Origin: Pachysolen tannophilus NRRL Y-2460
Lineage: Eukaryota
Direction: 5' to 3'
DNA: 64,000 nt
NCBI GenBank assembly: GCA_001661245.1
Contig: KV454016.1
Location: 606,648 to 670,647, forward strand
The notes under the pieces were generated by a model. The model was not told the origin of the DNA, searched no databases, and saw only the letters and a list, made by a program, of their open reading frames with translations. This document shows, one piece after another, positions 3,566 to 55,712 of the stretch. A program made the position numbers and the translations under genes. The stretch's first letter is position 1, and every line of letters begins with the position of its first letter.

Positions 3566-3647
3566 CGACAACGGCAGGACTCGAACCTGCGCGGGAAAAT
3601 CCCAAAAGATTTCTAATCTTTCGCCTTAACCGCTCGGCCACGTTGCC
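3566..3647 (-). tRNA. tRNA-Ser(AGA), intronless, long variable arm
   Basis: Reverse complement GGCAACGTGGCCGAGCGGTTAAGGCGAAAGATTAGAAATCTTTTGGGATTTTCCCGCGCAGGTTCGAGTCCTGCCGTTGTCG (82 nt), followed by a T-run Pol III terminator. Confidence 0.97.
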
Positions 3648-6088: not shown

Positions 6089-7420
6089 TTAGCCCAGCAA
6101 ACTAAATCTATGTAAATTATTTGACCAATCTTGAATTCCAATTTCCCCATTTAAATATTTATCTCTATTCACTTCTATATTTTTAGTAATTCCCGAACCT
6201 GACATTAAAAAAGTTGAACCATAAAGACTAGCACCCGACCATGGTCCCAAACTATGTACTAATTCAATTGGTATAGTTGTTAATTGTTGTAATTGTTTGG
6301 CAATATATGATTTAATACCTGGAATATGAGATAATCCACCAGTTATAATAATATTACCAAATAATTTTGTCCTTAAATCAATTGGTAAATTGATCAAAAT
6401 TTTATTTATAATTAAATCAATAATTGATTTTTCATTTGAATCCAAATTTGGCCAAAGATCTTGTGGTGGGAATAATAACTTTTTAACCAAATCACAACGT
6501 AATTTATTTGGAATTTTACAATTATCGGAAATTATAAAATCACCTTCAATATTTTCTTTATCATTTATATAGCAACATTTACTAATAAAATTTTCAATAA
6601 ATTCAAATAATTTATATTTATCATTAAAACTTGGTAGTTTTTCAAATCCAACAACTTGAATCAATTTTTCCAAAATCTCATAGTGCAAATATTTACCGCT
6701 TCTGTTTGTTGATTCAATATTATTATGAATTATTCTTAAATCATAAACTGGGACAATTGTTGTCAGTTCCCAACCAAGATCAATCACCAATGCATTTTGT
6801 ATACCAGCACCAATACAACACATAGTAGGCTCTGATACATATATCAATGACCTTGCATGTATATGGTTCAATAATGTATAACTTAATATATTTTTTAAAG
6901 GAATTGGTAAAAAAATATTTTCTATCAAGATAATTTTACACATTTTTGCATCAATCAATAATTCTGTTTGATAAATATCATGAAAAATTCTTTCTAATAA
7001 ATTTTCCAAAAATTTAGAATCAAAATTAGATGAGATATCATAATTCCATAACCATTGGGAGTTGATTAAATCTTTACAATAAATTGTTGATATTAATAAT
7101 TTTTCATTATTATTCTTTAATTTCGAAAATTCATCACCATGAGGATCAATTGAATGATCATTAGTAAGTATCAGTGAACCAGTTTGAGTTAATTCATTGA
7201 TTTCATCCGTAATACAGATTTCTCGATTCAAATGTTGATTCCATTTTAAATTATTTGTTTGTAAATTACATAATGGTGTAGCATCGCCTGCAAACCCCGC
7301 CTTAATAAACCTCGAACCTATTTGCAAAACCACAGGAAAATACTGATTGAGTTGTCTTTTCTGAAAATCCAGACTAAACTTCGGAACCGCCAGCTTTGAT
7401 TCTGAAGTCAACAAAGACAT
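6089..7420 (-). CDS. ARP10: Divergent actin-related protein, probably dynactin Arp10, 443 aa
   Basis: Actin-fold motifs VLQIGSRFIKAGFAGD, ALVIDLGWELTTIVPVYDLR, NIIITGGLSHIPG, WSGASL. Confidence 0.7.
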   Translation of the reverse strand: MSLLTSESKLAVPKFSLDFQKRQLNQYFPVVLQIGSRFIKAGFAGDATPLCNLQTNNLKWNQHLNREICITDEINELTQTGSLILTNDHSIDPHGDEFSKLKNNNEKLLISTIYCKDLINSQWLWNYDISSNFDSKFLENLLERIFHDIYQTELLIDAKMCKIILIENIFLPIPLKNILSYTLLNHIHARSLIYVSEPTMCCIGAGIQNALVIDLGWELTTIVPVYDLRIIHNNIESTNRSGKYLHYEILEKLIQVVGFEKLPSFNDKYKLFEFIENFISKCCYINDKENIEGDFIISDNCKIPNKLRCDLVKKLLFPPQDLWPNLDSNEKSIIDLIINKILINLPIDLRTKLFGNIIITGGLSHIPGIKSYIAKQLQQLTTIPIELVHSLGPWSGASLYGSTFLMSGSGITKNIEVNRDKYLNGEIGIQDWSNNLHRFSLLG

Positions 7421-10145
7421 CTAAATTTTTTTAAAAACAAAAACCAAAAAAAAAAAGAAAAAAAAATAAATGTAATATTATTTCTTTTATTTACTTTATT
7501 TATTTTTCCTCAAAATAAAAGTTGAGTAATAGTAATAGTAATAGTAGTAGTAGTAGTACCTCATTTACCACTTTTGTATTATTTATTTTTTATACAACAG
7601 CGGTTTCTTTCATGTTATATGTTTCTTTCCATATTATGTTTTCTTTATGTTACCTTTATTGATAACAGAGAATTAGTTGATGATGAGACAAGAGAAGCAC
7701 AACTCTGTAGTGTTCTAACGAACATCCATTGTTCCATTGATGCCAAACTCTGCTTGAGGAAGACTGTCTATATATTTTATTTTTTTTTAAAAAAAAGAAT
7801 TCTTCTCTTTTTTTGCTGAAATTCCCGGTTGCCCATTGGCGCTTAGCTTTGATGAAGATACAGCTACAGCTTACGTCTTTTCACATGTACCGTATAGAGT
7901 AGATCAGTTGCCGAATCAGGAAGCATCCATATTGATGTTGTATCTATCTGGTTTCATTATAGAACGCGGGACAAAACTTTAAAATTAATTTAAGTTGACT
8001 AGTAAAAATACGGTTGAATAAAAAAAATTAGGAAATCAACTTACAAAAAATCATTTTAACTCAACGGCGATAACGTATAATTAATAACTAAACCTCGGAA
8101 TAAAAGAGATCTACAAAACTACAAAAAAAAAAATTAAACTAATTCTGATGATATCTGGGACTTGGACTTTAAATTTTCAAAAATTGTTAAAACAAAAAGA
8201 AAAAAAAATTTAGCTTTTTTTTTTTTTTTTGCTTTGTTATGTTTTGTACATTTTTATTTTTTTGTTTTTTTTTTTTCTTACATGCTTTATTTGATGTATG
8301 GATGAGAGACAATTTGAAAGACATTACATGAAAAACTTAGTCCCCTCTGTGAGACCAAGAAAAAAAAACCCAAAAAAACAAGAAAAAAAGGCGATTACGA
8401 CTGCATATATTATTGTATTGTATTATATTATATTGCATCCAATAGTGTTATTCAGTAATTCTGTCATTTTAATCAGAGATAGTTTCCCAAGTAATTTTTT
8501 TTTTTTTTGTTTTTTGTTTTGTTTTTGTTTTTGTTTTCTTTTTTGTTGTATTGCTGTATTGCTGTATTGTTTGTGTATTTGCCTCTTTTTAACAATAAAA
8601 TAAGATGTAGAATTAAGTTAGTTTCATGTGGCGGTGGTGGTTGTTGCTGCGGAATGGTGCCTCATGATGAAAACAAAAAGATACAAGAATGTCTCATTTC
8701 GAATCTTACGTCTCATATTTAAATAGAGATATGCCCTTGGGTATGTTTGAAAAAAAAATTTAAAGTTTATTGTTTTTTTTTTTTATTTCTTTTCTTTATT
8801 TATGGTTGAACAATCAATCAATTAAAAGATTTATTTATTTATTTTTAATAATAATAAATTTAACTCAAGATTGTTGCACACCTTTATTTTTGTGTCTTTT
8901 TTTTTTAATAAAAAAAAAAATTTTTTGATGCGCCGATTAAGAAAACATATAGGGAATGCACAAGATATAATGCAAAATTAGGCAATCTAACGTCAAGTTT
9001 GTATCGACATGCATGATAACCAACATCCGGAAAACCACAACTTGACCAATGGTCAAATTGGTTTCTTTTTTCTTTTCTTTTTAAAATACAGTTTAAAGCT
9101 CATAATAATGATAATGCAAAAATTATTCTTTATATTGAATAGTAATACCTCCTGGTTATTTTTTGATCTTGTTCCCATTCATTTAGTTTATTGTGAAAAA
9201 ATTGCTGATCGTTTATCTAACATTGAATCCCACCTCTCACCCCCCTCCCTTTTCATTCTCTTATTTTTTTTTTTCGATTCGCAAAAAACTGCAGAATCTC
9301 TCAGAAATTGAATACAGTTTAATGCATAAACGTTAGAGCTAAATAATTTTCACGCATATTGTTCCTCTAACTAATTTAATAATTTTTCATATTATCAAAC
9401 TAAAAAAAAAAAAACAAAAAGTTCAAAAGTTTTAATCTCTGTATATACATATATATATAATGGAGTAGCCCAGGAAAAAAGTACTATGAAAAAAAATAAT
9501 ATATATACATATATATATATTATTTTGAAAAGAAAAAAAAATTAACAAACTTCTTACAAGAAAATCATTTGAGTATATCATCTGAATATCAATTTGAATT
9601 GAAAACTTAAAATGTTAATTTTTTCACTTCACCACTGAAACAATCTTCATATTGCTGTGTTTTCTTGAAAAATAAATCAAAAGAAAATTTATTTTATTTT
9701 AATTTTTTTTTTTCTTGGGTATTTGATTTTTGATTTTCCGCTATCACTATTATTAGTACCTGAAAGCAGCAGCACTCAACTAATTAGCCTAAACAGTTAC
9801 ATTAATATCCACTATACACCTCACTATTTACAAACTTTTATTTTTTGGCTTTTTTTATTTTTTTTTACTTTTTCTCGCTCATTATATCATTGTCTCATTC
9901 TTTGCAGCCGTTTTTAAATTTTTCGAGTTTCTCCCTGCAAGACAGATAAGATACATTATTACCAATTTTTTAAAAATCTTGATTTTATTAAAGATAAAGA
10001 ATTCTATATATTCATATATATGATTTGGTGTTAGAGCTGTATATTGATTGTTACTGATTTTTTATTTGAAAAAAAATACTATTCAAGAACGAAAAAAAAA
10101 AGCCAAAAATCGAGAAAGAAAAAAAAAAATTTTTGATTGTGCTGC

Positions 10146-10742
10146 ATGTCTACCACTATCAGAACAACAGAGATGTCTACAATCAATTGTAAACCTTTCA
10201 AAGAAGCTAGCTTATCAATTATTGCGGATGGCTCTACCAGTGCTGGTGAGGAATTACAGGAGACTGAAGAGTGTATTTCGTTGAGTAGTGACTCTTCAGA
10301 TGAGGAGAGTAGGGTGCTGGAAACCGTGGAAGAGATACAGGAACTGGAAAATTCTGATGATTCAGAGGAACCACAAGAAATTCATTCTCGATCAGAGCGG
10401 CCACCATTAAGCATACCTAAATCACATATGATAGCAGCATCTTCAAATCCAAGGAGAACTCTGTTGCTTTCCCCTTATATATTGCAAAATCAACTTGGAT
10501 CAAGATTTCCATATCACTCAATACATGGAATACACCAAAGACAAAATTTGAATTGTACTCCTTATTATTATCATGGACCAGCAAGATGTGGTATGAATTC
10601 ACCTTATTTACAACCTCCAAACAATTTTTTGTCTTCCTCTTTATCATCATCATCATCAACATCATCACAACAAAAAGATTCTCTGGATCTGGGTATTCAG
10701 CCAGTCTCATCTTTTTTCAAGAAAACTTGTTACAAGTGTTGA
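10146..10742 (+). CDS. 198-aa acidic/Ser/Pro-rich ORF ending in half a zinc knuckle (KKTCYKC*); likely the 5' part of a split GIS2/CNBP-like gene
   Basis: ATG at 10146; ends AAA ACT TGT TAC AAG TGT TGA. Confidence 0.65.
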   Translation: MSTTIRTTEMSTINCKPFKEASLSIIADGSTSAGEELQETEECISLSSDSSDEESRVLETVEEIQELENSDDSEEPQEIHSRSERPPLSIPKSHMIAASSNPRRTLLLSPYILQNQLGSRFPYHSIHGIHQRQNLNCTPYYYHGPARCGMNSPYLQPPNNFLSSSLSSSSSTSSQQKDSLDLGIQPVSSFFKKTCYKC

Positions 10743-11017
10743 ATCGAATAGAATAGAGTTATCGTAAACATCTGAAACTTGGATTAAGTATTTACAGTTG
10801 AAAGTTTATATCAGTAAATTTAAAAACCACTGCATTTTTTTTTTTCTTTTTTTTTCTTGGCTTTCATCTCACGGACTAGAATTTGTCTTTTTCTTTCTAG
10901 TATCAAAGAGTGGGAAGTGATATCTTTTTATTAAAGCCTCTCAAACTGTTATTGATAATAAGTATAGTGATTTAAAATTAAGAAAGCAATGATAGCTTTT
11001 GAAGTATTTTTCATAAA

Positions 11018-11834
11018 CTAGCCCCTTGGTGAACTTTGCTGTGCCCTGAAATGGCAATACTTGCTAATGTGACCTCTTTGTTGGCAAAAATGACATACAA
11101 CATCAGAAGCTTCAACAACATTCCAATCACAATTATCCATGAACGAAGTTAATCTTGACCGATTAACTCCCACAGCACAATAACTTTGATAATATACATA
11201 ACCTGGAGACAGAACACAATTCATTGGTAACTGATTGTGATAATATTTTTGAGCCAAGGCATCACCACTTAAGAACAACAAAGATTGTTGTTTTAAACTA
11301 GAAGAAGGATCGCTAGATCCTAGTTCAAGTTTCTGATGTGATGATAACGGCGTTCCGCTACTTGAAGGATATGGTGAGTTTGAAGATGGAGTTGTCATTG
11401 ATGATTCGGAGAGTGTGAAATACTGCTGTGATTGCTTTGTTGGACTCAATTGAAATTGTAAGTTGTAATATGGAGGCGGAGGTGGGTAATTATTAGGATG
11501 CAACTGTTGCTGAAACCGTTGTGGCAATTGCAGTTGCAGTTGCAGTTGCAGATGCAGATGCAGATGCAGCATCAGCAGGTGTTGTTGTTGTTGTTGCTGT
11601 TGATGATGTTGGTGTTGGTGATGCAGCGAATGTTGCGCATGTTGTGCATGTTGTTGCTGAGATTTTCTTGGGCACTGCGATTGGAGATGTCCAATCTCTC
11701 TGCATATATAACATTGTTTCAAAGTAGTTGACCTAGGGTGAGGACAATCAGCAGTCTCATGTCCAGGTTCTTTACAATTATAGCATAGTCGTTCAGTTGA
11801 TTGACAATTCTCAGCGTAATGACCAAGGTTTCCG
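11018..11834 (-). CDS. 3' part of a CCHC zinc-knuckle (GIS2/CNBP-like) protein with no ATG before its knuckles: half knuckle, two knuckles, Q/H/A-rich linker, C-terminal knuckle
   Basis: GNLGHYAENCQSTERLCYNCKEPGHETADCPHPRSTTLKQCYICREIGHLQSQC matches the Gis2 N-terminal knuckle array; in-frame TGA just upstream; ends CHFCQQRGHISKYC...*. Confidence 0.8.
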
Positions 11835-12246
11835 CTTCGTCAAATTTTTTTTGACCCACCCTTGTATGATTTACATTATACATTTTTCAATATGAAAAAA
11901 TTTTATATGTTTAGTCTTTTAATTGATATTTTTCCCCCTTTTTTGTTTTTAATAATATTTTTTTAAAAATATTTTTAGAATTCAATTCTTTTCTTTTTCC
12001 TTTCCATTCCTTCCCTTTCTTGTTTGTTGATTAGGAATTAATATAATAAATAAGCATCTTATATAATGATTGATCTGTTGATAATGTTATAGATACAACA
12101 TTCTGAATGTTGTATTCCAAAAATTTTTGTATTTTTTCTGCATGAAGCAAATTTGAAATATTCGCCCCTTTTTTTTTTTGGCACTTATAAATAGGTCCAA
12201 ATATTGGCTTCAAAATAACTTTTAATGATTTATACATTAAACAAGG

Positions 12247-13876
12247 ATGACTACAGGTGAGATTGAAGATGGCCTAACAGGCCCTGGAACTATTATTTCA
12301 GTTGATGAGTTACAAGATCATGGAATTAATGCTGGTGATATTCAAAAATTAAAAGCTGTGGGTATATGCTCAATTTCTGTAAGTTGATATCAATAATTTC
12401 TTTTATTTGCAAAATAATAAACAATGACAGAATTATCTAACAAAATAAATCTTTTTTTTTTCTAAAGACGGTGTTATCTACAACACGTAGAAATTTATTG
12501 AAAGTTAAAGGTTTGAGTGAAGTTAAAGTTGAAAAAATTAAAGAGGCAGCAGGTAAATTAGTTCAGGCAGGTTTCATTCCTGCAACAATACAAGCAGAAC
12601 TCAGAAGCAGAGTTTTTTCCTTATCTACTGGTTCAAAATCTCTTGATGCTATATTGGGTGGTGGAATCATGACAATGTCAATTACAGAGGTTTTTGGAGA
12701 GTTTAGATGTGGTAAAACTCAGTTAGCACATACTTTATGTGTTACTGCCCAATTATCAAGGGTAAGTCTCCCTTTTTTCCAAAAAATGATAAAAAGTAAC
12801 AAATACTGACTAGTAATTTAATTCAATTTAACTTTTAGGAAATGGGAGGTGGAGAAGGTAAAGTCGCATACATTGACACTGAAGGTACATTTCGTCCGGA
12901 AAGGTAAGTATATGTCGATAAAAATGAAAAAAAAAAAAATGAAAAAAAATTTTACTAACCCCTAATCTTAGAATTAAACAAATAGCCGAAAGGTATGAAG
13001 TTGACCCAGAAACATGTTTATCAAATATTTCATATGTCAGAGCTTTAAACAGTGAGCATCAATCAGAATTAGTTGAACAATTAGGCATCCATTTAGCAGA
13101 AGGTAGCTATAGATTGGTTGTATGTACAAGGTTTTGAAAAAAAAAAAAATAACAGGAGTAACTTAATACTAACTCAAAACTAGATCGTTGATTCAATTAT
13201 GGCAAATTTCAGAGTTGATGTAAGTTCACCTTTAAGTTTTAGATAGTTTAGGTGGAATAATAGAAACTAACTTTTTTCTTTTTCATTTTTTTCATTTTTT
13301 TTTTCAGTTTTCTGGACGTGGTGAATTAGGAGAAAGACAACAAAGGTATGTACTGATAGAAAAAGTTCTAATTAAGAGGAATAATACTAACAAAGATTAA
13401 ATTTTTTTTTTTTTTTTTTTTTTTTTTTCTCTTTCAAGACTCAATCAGCATCTATCAAAGTTAAACAGAATTGCCGAGGACTTTAACGTAGCAGTGTTTT
13501 TAACTAATCAAGTTCAATCAGATCCTGGAGCAAGTGCCCTTTTTGCCTCGGCTGACGGAAGGAAACCGTAAGTAATTATAATTGTACAACCATTTTCAAT
13601 TTTTGAATACTAACATTTTTGTGTTTTAAAATATAGGATTGGTGGTCATGTTTTAGCTCATGCTTCACAGACAAGAGTGTTGCTTCGGTAAGTTTTAATG
13701 GAACAATAAATAGTTTATGTTCAAGTACTAACAAAATCGTATTTAACATTATTTAACATAATAGTAAGGGAAGAGGAGAAGAAAGAGTCGCTAAATTACA
13801 GGATAGTCCCGACATGCCGGAAAAAGAGTGTGTCTATACTATTGCTGAAGGTGGTATTACTGATAGTTCAGGCTAA
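12247..13876 (+). CDS. DMC1: Meiotic recombinase Dmc1, 334 aa, 9 exons: 12247-12378, 12468-12761, 12839-12903, 12972-13119, 13184-13219, 13308-13345, 13439-13567, 13637-13687, 13765-13876
   Basis: Spliced frame gives [28 protein letters not shown] (Walker A), [62 protein letters not shown]; exons total 1005 nt. Confidence 0.96.
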
Positions 13877-14160: not shown

Positions 14161-15672
14161 ATGGGTGCTGCTATTTCGATTCCACTTGCTATTCCATCGA
14201 TGATTGCTTCTAGTTTATCATCATGTTTTGGGGCAGCGATGTGTTCGGCTTGTTTGAGTAGTACGAATCCTTTATCAAAAACGTTTAAATCATCAATAGC
14301 TACAAGAATAACTTATGCAATTATATTTTTAATAAACTCTGTTTTATCATGGGTTTCATTATCTAATATAATATCAAAGAAATTAGAAAAATTAACTTGG
14401 GGACTATTTAAATTTGGTAGGAGTTTTTGTGATGATGATAACAATTGTACTGGTTTTACAAATGTTCATAGGTTAAATTTATCTTTAGGTTTTTTGCATA
14501 TTATAATAGGATTATTATTGATTGGTGTTAGATCAACATCAAACCCAAGAGCTGTGATTCAGAATGGTTTTTGGAAAACTAAGATTTTCATTTGGTTAAC
14601 TTTTATTACTTTGAGTTTTATGATACCAGATAAATTTTTCGTTGTTTGGGGAAATTATTTTTCTATTATTTTCTCGACATTATTTATTGGAATTGGTTTA
14701 ATTTTATTAGTTGATTTTTCTCATGAATGGGCAGAAACTTGTTTGGAAAAAATTGAAGAAGGTGAGATTTATTTAGGTGATGGTGAAGATGGTGTTTTAC
14801 AAAATGGGAATTTTTGGAAAACTGTTTTAGTTGGAGGTACGATTTCTATGTATCTTGGTTGTATTATCATGTCTATATTGATGTATATTTATTTTTCACA
14901 TTCTGGATGTAATTTAAATACCACTGCTATAACATTAAATTTGGTTTTCACAATAGTTATCACGACTTTATCAATAACACCAATTGTTCAAGAATATAAT
15001 TCAAATGCCGGTTTAGCTCAAGCTTCAATGTGTTGTATTTATTGTACTTATTTAATTTTTAGTGCATGTTTGAGCGAACCTGATGATAAACTTTGCAATC
15101 CCTTGATTAGAAGCAAAGGTACAAGAACTATAAGTATTGTTATGGGTGCATTTTTCACATTTGTCGCTGTTGCATATACAACAACAAGAGCAGCTGGGAA
15201 CTCTGCTTTTTCTCATAGCTCTTCCAACCTGGCATACACAGATTCGCAATATGACTCAGTTGCTGATATAATAACGTCACAACCTTCTTTAAGGAACGAG
15301 ATGCGTCTTGAAGCTATAAGGCAAGCTGTTAATGAAGGATCATTACCTGAAAGCGCTTTAAATAACCCTGGTTATTTGTATGATGATGATGATGAAGATG
15401 AATCAGGGGTAGGTGAGGAAGTTGCTTATACCAAGTACAATTATTTCTTATTTCACATTATATTTTTCTTGGCCACACAATATATTGCTGCATTATTAAC
15501 AATAAATGTTGGCGCAGATGAAAATGGTGATGGTGAAGGATCAGATTTTAGACCAGTGGGTAGAACCTATTTTAATACCTGGGTAAAAATTGTCAGTTCA
15601 TGGGTATGTTACGCTCTATATACTTGGAGCCTAATTGCTCCCGTTTTGTTCCCAGATAGGTTTGGTTCTTAG
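14161..15672 (+). CDS. TMS1: Serinc/TDE-family membrane protein Tms1, 503 aa
   Basis: MGA start, SSIATRITYA, RAVIQNGFW, LILLVDFSHEWAE, EPDDKLCNP, WVKIVSSWVCYALYTWSLIAPVLFPDRF. Confidence 0.93.
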   Translation: MGAAISIPLAIPSMIASSLSSCFGAAMCSACLSSTNPLSKTFKSSIATRITYAIIFLINSVLSWVSLSNIISKKLEKLTWGLFKFGRSFCDDDNNCTGFTNVHRLNLSLGFLHIIIGLLLIGVRSTSNPRAVIQNGFWKTKIFIWLTFITLSFMIPDKFFVVWGNYFSIIFSTLFIGIGLILLVDFSHEWAETCLEKIEEGEIYLGDGEDGVLQNGNFWKTVLVGGTISMYLGCIIMSILMYIYFSHSGCNLNTTAITLNLVFTIVITTLSITPIVQEYNSNAGLAQASMCCIYCTYLIFSACLSEPDDKLCNPLIRSKGTRTISIVMGAFFTFVAVAYTTTRAAGNSAFSHSSSNLAYTDSQYDSVADIITSQPSLRNEMRLEAIRQAVNEGSLPESALNNPGYLYDDDDEDESGVGEEVAYTKYNYFLFHIIFFLATQYIAALLTINVGADENGDGEGSDFRPVGRTYFNTWVKIVSSWVCYALYTWSLIAPVLFPDRFGS

Positions 15673-54417: not shown

Positions 54418-55712
54418 GCAAAACAAAGAGAAAAATACCAATAACTTTCACTAATGTCCCTATTGCATAGATGATACATAAATTGTTTTTTTAAATGTAA
54501 TTATTATTTTTAAAATAGAAAAAAGAAAAAAGAAAAGAAAAGAAAAGAAAAAAGACTCAATTAATCAAAAGTTATATTTATATAATTTTCCTTTTGGAAA
54601 GTGATATTTTGTGGTGAAAGGTATAAATATAAGAATATTTCTTTTTTTAAAAATACATTTCTTTGTCTTTTGTTTTTAATTGTGTAAGTTTAGATGCAAT
54701 TCTAATACTTGACAAATTTAAGCGCCCATACACTTTATAAGAGTAAAAGAGTTAAAAAGTTTTATTTTTATTTTAAATAAANNNNNNNNNNNNNNNNNNN
54801 NNNNNNNNNNNNNNNNNNNNNNNNNNNNNNNNNNNNNNNNNNNNNNNNNNNNNNNNNNNNNNNNNNNNNNNNNNNNNNNNNNNNNNNNNNNNNNNNNNNN
54901 NNNNNNNNNNNNNNNNNNNNNNNNNNNNNNNNNNNNNNNNNNNNNNNNNNNNNNNNNNNNNNNNNNNNNNNNNNNNNNNNNNNNNNNNNNNNNNNNNNNN
55001 NNNNNNNNNNNNNNNNNNNNNNNNNNNNNNNNNNNNNNNNNNNNNNNNNNNNNNNNNNNNNNNNNNNNNNNNNNNNNNNNNNNNNNNNNNNNNNNNNNNN
55101 NNNNNNNNNNNNNNNNNNNNNNNNNNNNNNNNNNNNNNNNNNNNNNNNNNNNNNNNNNNNNNNNNNNNNNNNNNNNNNNNNNNNNNNNNNNNNNNNNNNN
55201 NNNNNNNNNNNNNNNNNNNNNNNNNNNNNNNNNNNNNNNNNNNNNNNNNNNNNNNNNNNNNNNNNNNNNNNNNNNNNNNNNNNNNNNNNNNNNNNNNNNN
55301 NNNNNNNNNNNNNNNNNNNNNNNNNNNNNNNNNNNNNNNNNNNNNNNNNGCAAAACAAAGAGAAAAATACCAATAACTTTCACTAATGTCCCTATTGCAT
55401 AGATGATACATAAATTGTTTTTTAAATGTAATTATTATTTTTAAAATAGAAAAAAGAAAAAAGAAAAGAAAAGAAAAGAAAAAAGACTCAATTAATCAAA
55501 AGTTATATTTATATAATTTTCCTTTTGGAAAGTGATATTTTGTGGTGAAAGGTATAAATATAAGAATATTTCTTTTTTTAAAAATACATTTCTTTGTCTT
55601 TTGTTTTTAATTGTGTAAGTTTAGATGCAATTCTAATACTTGACAAATTTAAGCGCCCATACACTTTATAAGAGTAAAAGAGTTAAAAAGTTTTATTTTT
55701 ATTTTAAATAAA
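54418..55712. repeat. Direct duplication of about 364 bp (54418-54781 and 55350-55712) flanking an N gap (54782-55349); probable unmerged contig overlap
   Basis: The only difference I found is one T-run length (7 vs 6); both copies abut the gap exactly. Confidence 0.9.

Follow-up and report, generated by a model that had tools for sequence, protein, structure and literature searches.

The window, the 64,000-nt stretch of DNA that was analysed, contains two parts of a zinc-knuckle gene, on opposite strands, upstream of DMC1. The 5' part (10146..10739, plus strand; codons 1-198) was deposited as protein P0008, and its translated tail aligned with the sequence F-K-[KR]-T-C-Y-x-C of related proteins. 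As had been described in an earlier interpretation of this DNA (the sequence-only reading), the corresponding ORF (10146-10742, plus strand, 198 aa) closes with C-Y-K-C, which contributes the initial cysteine pair of knuckle 1, followed by TGA. This stop codon (10740..10742, plus strand) is due solely to the junction and is the first triplet of a 1,094-nt segment (10740..11833) that had the opposite orientation in contigs of all four sequencing runs compared.

On the minus strand, an in-frame TGA (11842-11840) and two further codons precede the missing second part of a CCHC knuckle; thereafter the frame encodes two full knuckles, a tract rich in Q and H, and finally a knuckle at the C-terminus. 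The 3' part of the gene (11021..11833, minus strand; codons 199-469) encodes what remains of knuckle 1 together with knuckles 2 and 3, the tract, which is also rich in alanine, and knuckle 4. Also in agreement with the sequence-only reading, no ATG lies ahead of the three N-proximal knuckles of this frame; the earliest in-frame ATG is at 11572. The gene's stop codon (11018..11020, minus strand) is followed by its 3' flank (10740..11017, minus strand), which lies inside the flipped segment and includes a T-rich run (10835-10867). In the minus-strand part, Pfam zf-CCHC (PF00098) was detected in two stretches (E 6.2e-13; 48.6 bits, with a gathering cut-off of 20.8), and PDB sequence matches were to generic knuckles (retroviral nucleocapsid, Lin28) at E 4e-6 or weaker, which gave no clue to function. 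The 198-aa 5' part, of which 194 aa precede the knuckles, had no Pfam match. Inside the gene, positions 11517-11628 form a repeat rich in CAG, CAA, CAT, and CTG; with CTG read as alanine, this repeat encodes Ala-His and Ala-Gln dipeptides rather than Leu-His and Leu-Gln.

A spacer (11834..12246) separates the segment from the start and first exons of DMC1 (12247..13700, plus strand; many introns). The assignment of this downstream neighbour to DMC1 was borne out by the one exon tested (12468-12761, 98 aa), which matched Saccharomyces cerevisiae Dmc1 at E 3.1e-49 (167.9 bits) and was closer to it than to the best-matching Rad51 (E 2e-25, 92.1 bits). By eye, DMC1 showed at least seven short introns with GTAAGT or GTATGT donors and ACTAAC branch sites, which is many for a budding yeast. 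Further neighbours were an ORF for a Serinc/TMS1-type membrane protein (14161-15672, plus strand; E 1.3e-155) and one for an actin-related protein (6089-7420, minus strand; E 7.7e-23). These two ORFs, ordinary housekeeping genes, had no match to a recombinase family.

In NCBI, UniRef, nr, and MetaClust, each half was entered as a protein in its own right, one with 198 aa and the other with 184 aa. Under NCBI translation table 26, P0008 was an exact match to the plus-strand ORF 10146-10739 and the 184-aa P0001 to the minus-strand ORF 11572-11021. With tables 1 and 12, the two proteins deviated from the window ORFs at every CTG codon (5 and 8, respectively), all 13 of which are alanine in the deposited sequences. 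These results indicated that the source record was annotated with the CUG-Ala code. NCBI table 26 is named after Pachysolen. Pachysolen tannophilus, Peterozyma, and Nakazawaea together make up the CUG-Ala clade (PMC6692504; PMC5951914). A tRNA gene scan of the window yielded tRNA-Ser(AGA) (3566-3647, minus strand) as the sole tRNA gene, and the reading of CTG as alanine therefore rests on the deposited proteins rather than on a tRNA. The window holds a single run of N (568 N, 54782-55349), which, if not a masked stretch, represents a gap in the scaffold of the source assembly.

The restored gene and its relatives

When positions 10739-11834 were reversed by script, the 1410-nt ORF predicted by the sequence-only reading was obtained, encoding 469 aa with four CCHC knuckles. 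A one-base shift of both ends to the same side gave products of merely 204 or 236 aa. The earlier placement of the breakpoints, given there with a 1-nt ambiguity, was correct in that this flip joins the halves, and the run contigs refined it. At these junctions the contigs left no letters ambiguous and placed the breakpoints at 10739|10740 and 11833|11834, one base further inside on each side, and a flip of the resulting segment (10740-11833) left codon 198 as TGT and yielded the identical 469 residues.

In this virtual product, CX2CX4HX4C knuckles start at residues 195, 215, 239, and 445 (n = 4), so that a low-complexity tract rich in Q, H, and A separates three tandem knuckles from a fourth at the C-terminus. 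Judging from the domain type, the 469-aa protein probably binds single-stranded RNA or DNA. With the segment in its intact orientation, the gene and DMC1 form a tandem pair, the stop codon of the former preceding the start codon of the latter by approximately 690 nt.

A protein search with the minus-strand part as query (2,102 candidates) returned seven proteins at E ≤ 0.001: the 184-aa ORF of the window itself, plus six relatives. The relatives covered 20-32% of the query, and local alignments placed the match in the knuckle region. Named cluster members among them were from Wickerhamomyces anomalus, Cyberlindnera fabianii, and C. jadinii, while one match was from Rhizoctonia solani. All six were encoded by a single ORF in which the knuckle that is broken in the window was whole. 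In BLASTP comparisons with the virtual product, each of the six alignments began between residues 127 and 186 and extended beyond residue 198, and hence spanned the break. The sequence F-K-[KR]-T-C-Y-x-C-G-N-L-G-H was present in five of the relatives and in a looser form in P0004. The first three knuckles were spaced n, n+20, n+44 in all six, in agreement with residues 195, 215, and 239 of the virtual product. A late fourth knuckle occurred in P0003 and P0007, and P0004 had five knuckles. Only after the virtual flip did the window gene show this three-plus-one arrangement. The Wickerhamomyces and Cyberlindnera proteins that shared motif and spacing had lengths of 268-346 aa and belong, as does the restored product, to a family without a curated name. 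Since the tail of the plus-strand ORF and the head of the minus-strand frame matched a stretch that is unbroken in the relatives, they are two halves of one conserved element. Judged by its relatives, the intact form is ancestral.

A second search, with the 5' part against 1.84 billion representative proteins, gave two matches at E ≤ 0.001: the query itself and a 377-aa low-complexity protein (E 8.4e-4) that was taken as spurious. As the 5' part thus had no credible relative, the N-terminal region yielded neither orthologues nor a synteny comparison. The 469-aa product did not appear in the results of either search.

GIS2/CNBP is a small protein that consists almost entirely of seven tandem knuckles. 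The restored product shares tandem CX2CX4HX4C knuckles with it, and one relative, P0005 from Cyberlindnera jadinii, was named GIS2 in its source. In contrast, the product has 469 aa, a 3+1 arrangement of four knuckles, a 194-aa N-terminal region, a long low-complexity tract, and a 5' part that matched no family. Based on this architecture, orthology to GIS2/CNBP was rejected.

An arrangement of two independent genes was also considered, in which the CxxC at the end of the plus-strand ORF would be fortuitous and a short 5' exon, joined by splicing, would supply the minus-strand gene with its first CxxC. An AG just upstream of the minus-strand fragment and the abundance of short introns in this organism are in line with such a model. 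However, between 11834 and the DMC1 start at 12247, the minus strand contained no CxxC-coding 12-mer, no GTAAGT or GTATGT donor, and no ACTAAC branch site, signals that are plain in the introns of neighbouring DMC1, and a separate 5' exon for the minus-strand part was rejected. Moreover, the plus-strand tail matched the conserved residues ahead of G-N-L-G-H in five of six relatives, and the run contigs joined both parts as DNA, which by itself refutes the model unless the contigs of all four runs share one and the same error. Two independent genes are therefore exceedingly improbable.

Orientation of the segment in public sequencing runs

The stretch was contained in five public sequencing runs, of which X1-X4 were from one study (2010-2011) and X5 from a second (2023); none was recorded as RNA. 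Logan contigs of X1, X2, X4, and X5, representing three samples and two studies, were compared over positions 9500-12800. X3 was left out because its sample was that of X2, and X6 and X7 held next to none of the words of the stretch. Orientation was thus assessed on contigs of public runs, from which rare variants are dropped, rather than on the raw reads behind the assembly. The contigs covered intergenic DNA and DMC1 introns and totalled about 13-17 Mb per run, which indicated that they were derived from genomic DNA.

A comparison of read orientation had been proposed as a check by the sequence-only reading, for which reads with the intact orientation alone would refute its proposal; in the contigs, this outcome was obtained, with only the intact orientation found in four of four runs, three samples, and two studies. 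In X1, X2, X4, and X5 alike, position 10739 was joined to 11833 and position 10740 to 11834, on opposite strands and with no inserted or ambiguous letters. A single 3,394-nt contig of X1 spanned 9535-12800, with collinear flanks and only 10740-11833 reversed. X2, X4, and X5 each contributed two contigs, each of which crossed one junction; the ends of these contigs fell in or near the T-rich run (10827-10865) and not at the junctions. Both junctions were crossed at full contig depth and without branching. Among the listed contig matches of the four runs, no piece, joint, or loose end supported the junctions of the window itself.

Apart from orientation, the window and all four runs showed 0 substitutions over 3,301 nt, a comparison in which the repeat at 11517-11628 was skipped. 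Five one-base differences in homopolymer length were found between the window and the runs. At 9857, 10091, and 12168, the window agreed with X1 against X2, X4, and X5, and at 10119 and 12452 with X2, X4, and X5 against X1. These differences suggest residual homopolymer errors in the assembly. The absence of substitutions, together with the restriction of differences to five homopolymers, indicated that the runs were of the window's strain lineage or nearly so.

Origin of the inverted arrangement

The sequence-only reading had offered a recent inversion, a reversible DNA switch, and a mis-assembly as possible origins of the split gene. Its description of a single gene that a clean 1.1-kb inversion has divided stood and was confirmed by the relatives; the switch, which it had put foremost, was not supported, since inverted repeats were lacking, the inverted form occurred solely in the window, and the contigs were intact only. 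It had also taken the open state of both halves as evidence against old pseudogenisation. This holds insofar as the break is recent or artificial, and nothing further follows from it.

The absence of inverted repeats at the borders, already remarked upon in the sequence-only reading, was corroborated. Within ±40 nt of the borders, exact inverted matches did not exceed 6 nt, a length reached in 75% of 500 shuffles. Neither a repeat scan of positions 9800-12700 nor one covering the entire window (pairs of at least 60 nt) detected an inverted pair bracketing 10740-11833. The borders accordingly lacked the paired inverted repeats or recombination sites expected of a programmed switch. In the contigs, no letters were shared by both sides of the breakpoints, which thus lacked microhomology, and the flip was fully reciprocal, with 0 bases lost, gained, or duplicated. 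The borders of the flipped block were free of N and lay apart from the breaks in the run contigs (10827-10865 and 11517-11628).

In a reversible programmed switch, the ON orientation would encode the 469-aa protein and the OFF orientation would be the split form, by analogy with flip/flop mating-type switching. The flip is in frame and exactly reciprocal, the locus adjoins the meiotic gene DMC1, and the source annotation reads CTG as alanine, as in the clade to which P. tannophilus belongs. This yeast is described as inverting an 8-kb MAT region, with 2-kb inverted repeats, upon nitrogen depletion (PMC6692504), and mating-type switching in Ogataea polymorpha as a 19-kb inversion (PMC5720833). 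Such flip/flop systems have a segment in two orientations, one of which alters gene expression, and the present locus would resemble them in this if the inverted form given in the window occurs in DNA of the organism. They differ in that they recombine between long, kb-scale inverted repeats and that both orientations occur in cultures, whereas no repeat was found here at the borders or around the locus. In addition, the break in the present locus falls within coding codons, and the contigs, unbranched at both junctions, displayed the intact orientation alone in all four runs; with rare variants dropped from the contigs, the inverted form was seen in the window only. None of the relatives had the split form. 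Because contigs hide a minority form, a very slight probability is retained for a reversible switch. An equally slight one attaches to the statement that a clean, repeat-free, reciprocal inversion is real in the isolate and silences the gene beside DMC1, perhaps reversibly, in a minority of cells.

Alternatively, the 1,094-nt inversion could be real and private to the assembled isolate, in which two breaks and a flipped rejoining would have become fixed and have knocked out the gene. The window gives this arrangement without gaps at the borders, and both halves are still open, so that any real event would be very recent. Blocks with repeat-free borders are, furthermore, seldom inverted by assemblers, which counts against an assembly error, as does the position of the block's borders, free of N and away from the breaks in the run contigs. 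Against a private inversion, the contigs of four of four runs, from three samples, were intact and had no substitutions relative to the window, so that a carrier would have to be nearly identical to non-carriers. Among the intact runs was X1, which was closest to the window in homopolymer lengths. Clean junctions without loss, gain, or microhomology are, moreover, atypical of end-joining repair and of spontaneous rearrangement in the absence of repeats. A private inversion is consequently considered unlikely, if considerably less so than a switch.

An erroneous orientation of segment 10740-11833 in the assembly is the most likely explanation, and the split gene would then in all likelihood be an artefact rather than a feature of the cell. 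In that case, the locus would be one ordinary gene for a 469-aa protein, and the block 10740-11833 would have been written as its reverse complement during assembly, scaffolding, or gap closure. Such a reversal would cut knuckle 1 between its second cysteine and the next glycine, create the false TGA, and deprive the 3' part of a start codon, after which annotation would have yielded a 198-aa and a 184-aa protein. An artefact is favoured because all independent read sets seen were intact and, homopolymer lengths excepted, otherwise base-identical to the window, and because the flip is perfectly reciprocal, as a reverse-complemented block would be. It is further favoured because the record bears marks of a draft, namely the 568 N and homopolymer miscounts relative to X2, X4, and X5 (two studies), and because six of six relatives are unbroken with the same knuckle spacing, while the minus-strand part has no 5' exon of its own.

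These features resemble local inversion errors of draft assemblies, in which a block is complete and base-perfect but reversed, independent reads of the same lineage disagree with the assembly, and the record contains scaffold gaps and homopolymer miscounts. The present case differs from such errors in that the borders carry neither N runs nor repeats, and the faulty step cannot be named from the sequence.

Should the inversion be real in the sequenced stock, it would have created a null allele, recent in origin, of this lineage-restricted zinc-knuckle gene. If, as is thought most probable, it is an assembly error, the split has little biological weight of its own, and an artefact has entered protein databases as two fragments. 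A repeat-free, in-frame "invertible switch" of this kind can be dismissed by comparing independent read sets across its two junctions. The corrected gene model would then be one 469-aa CCHC protein in place of two fragments.
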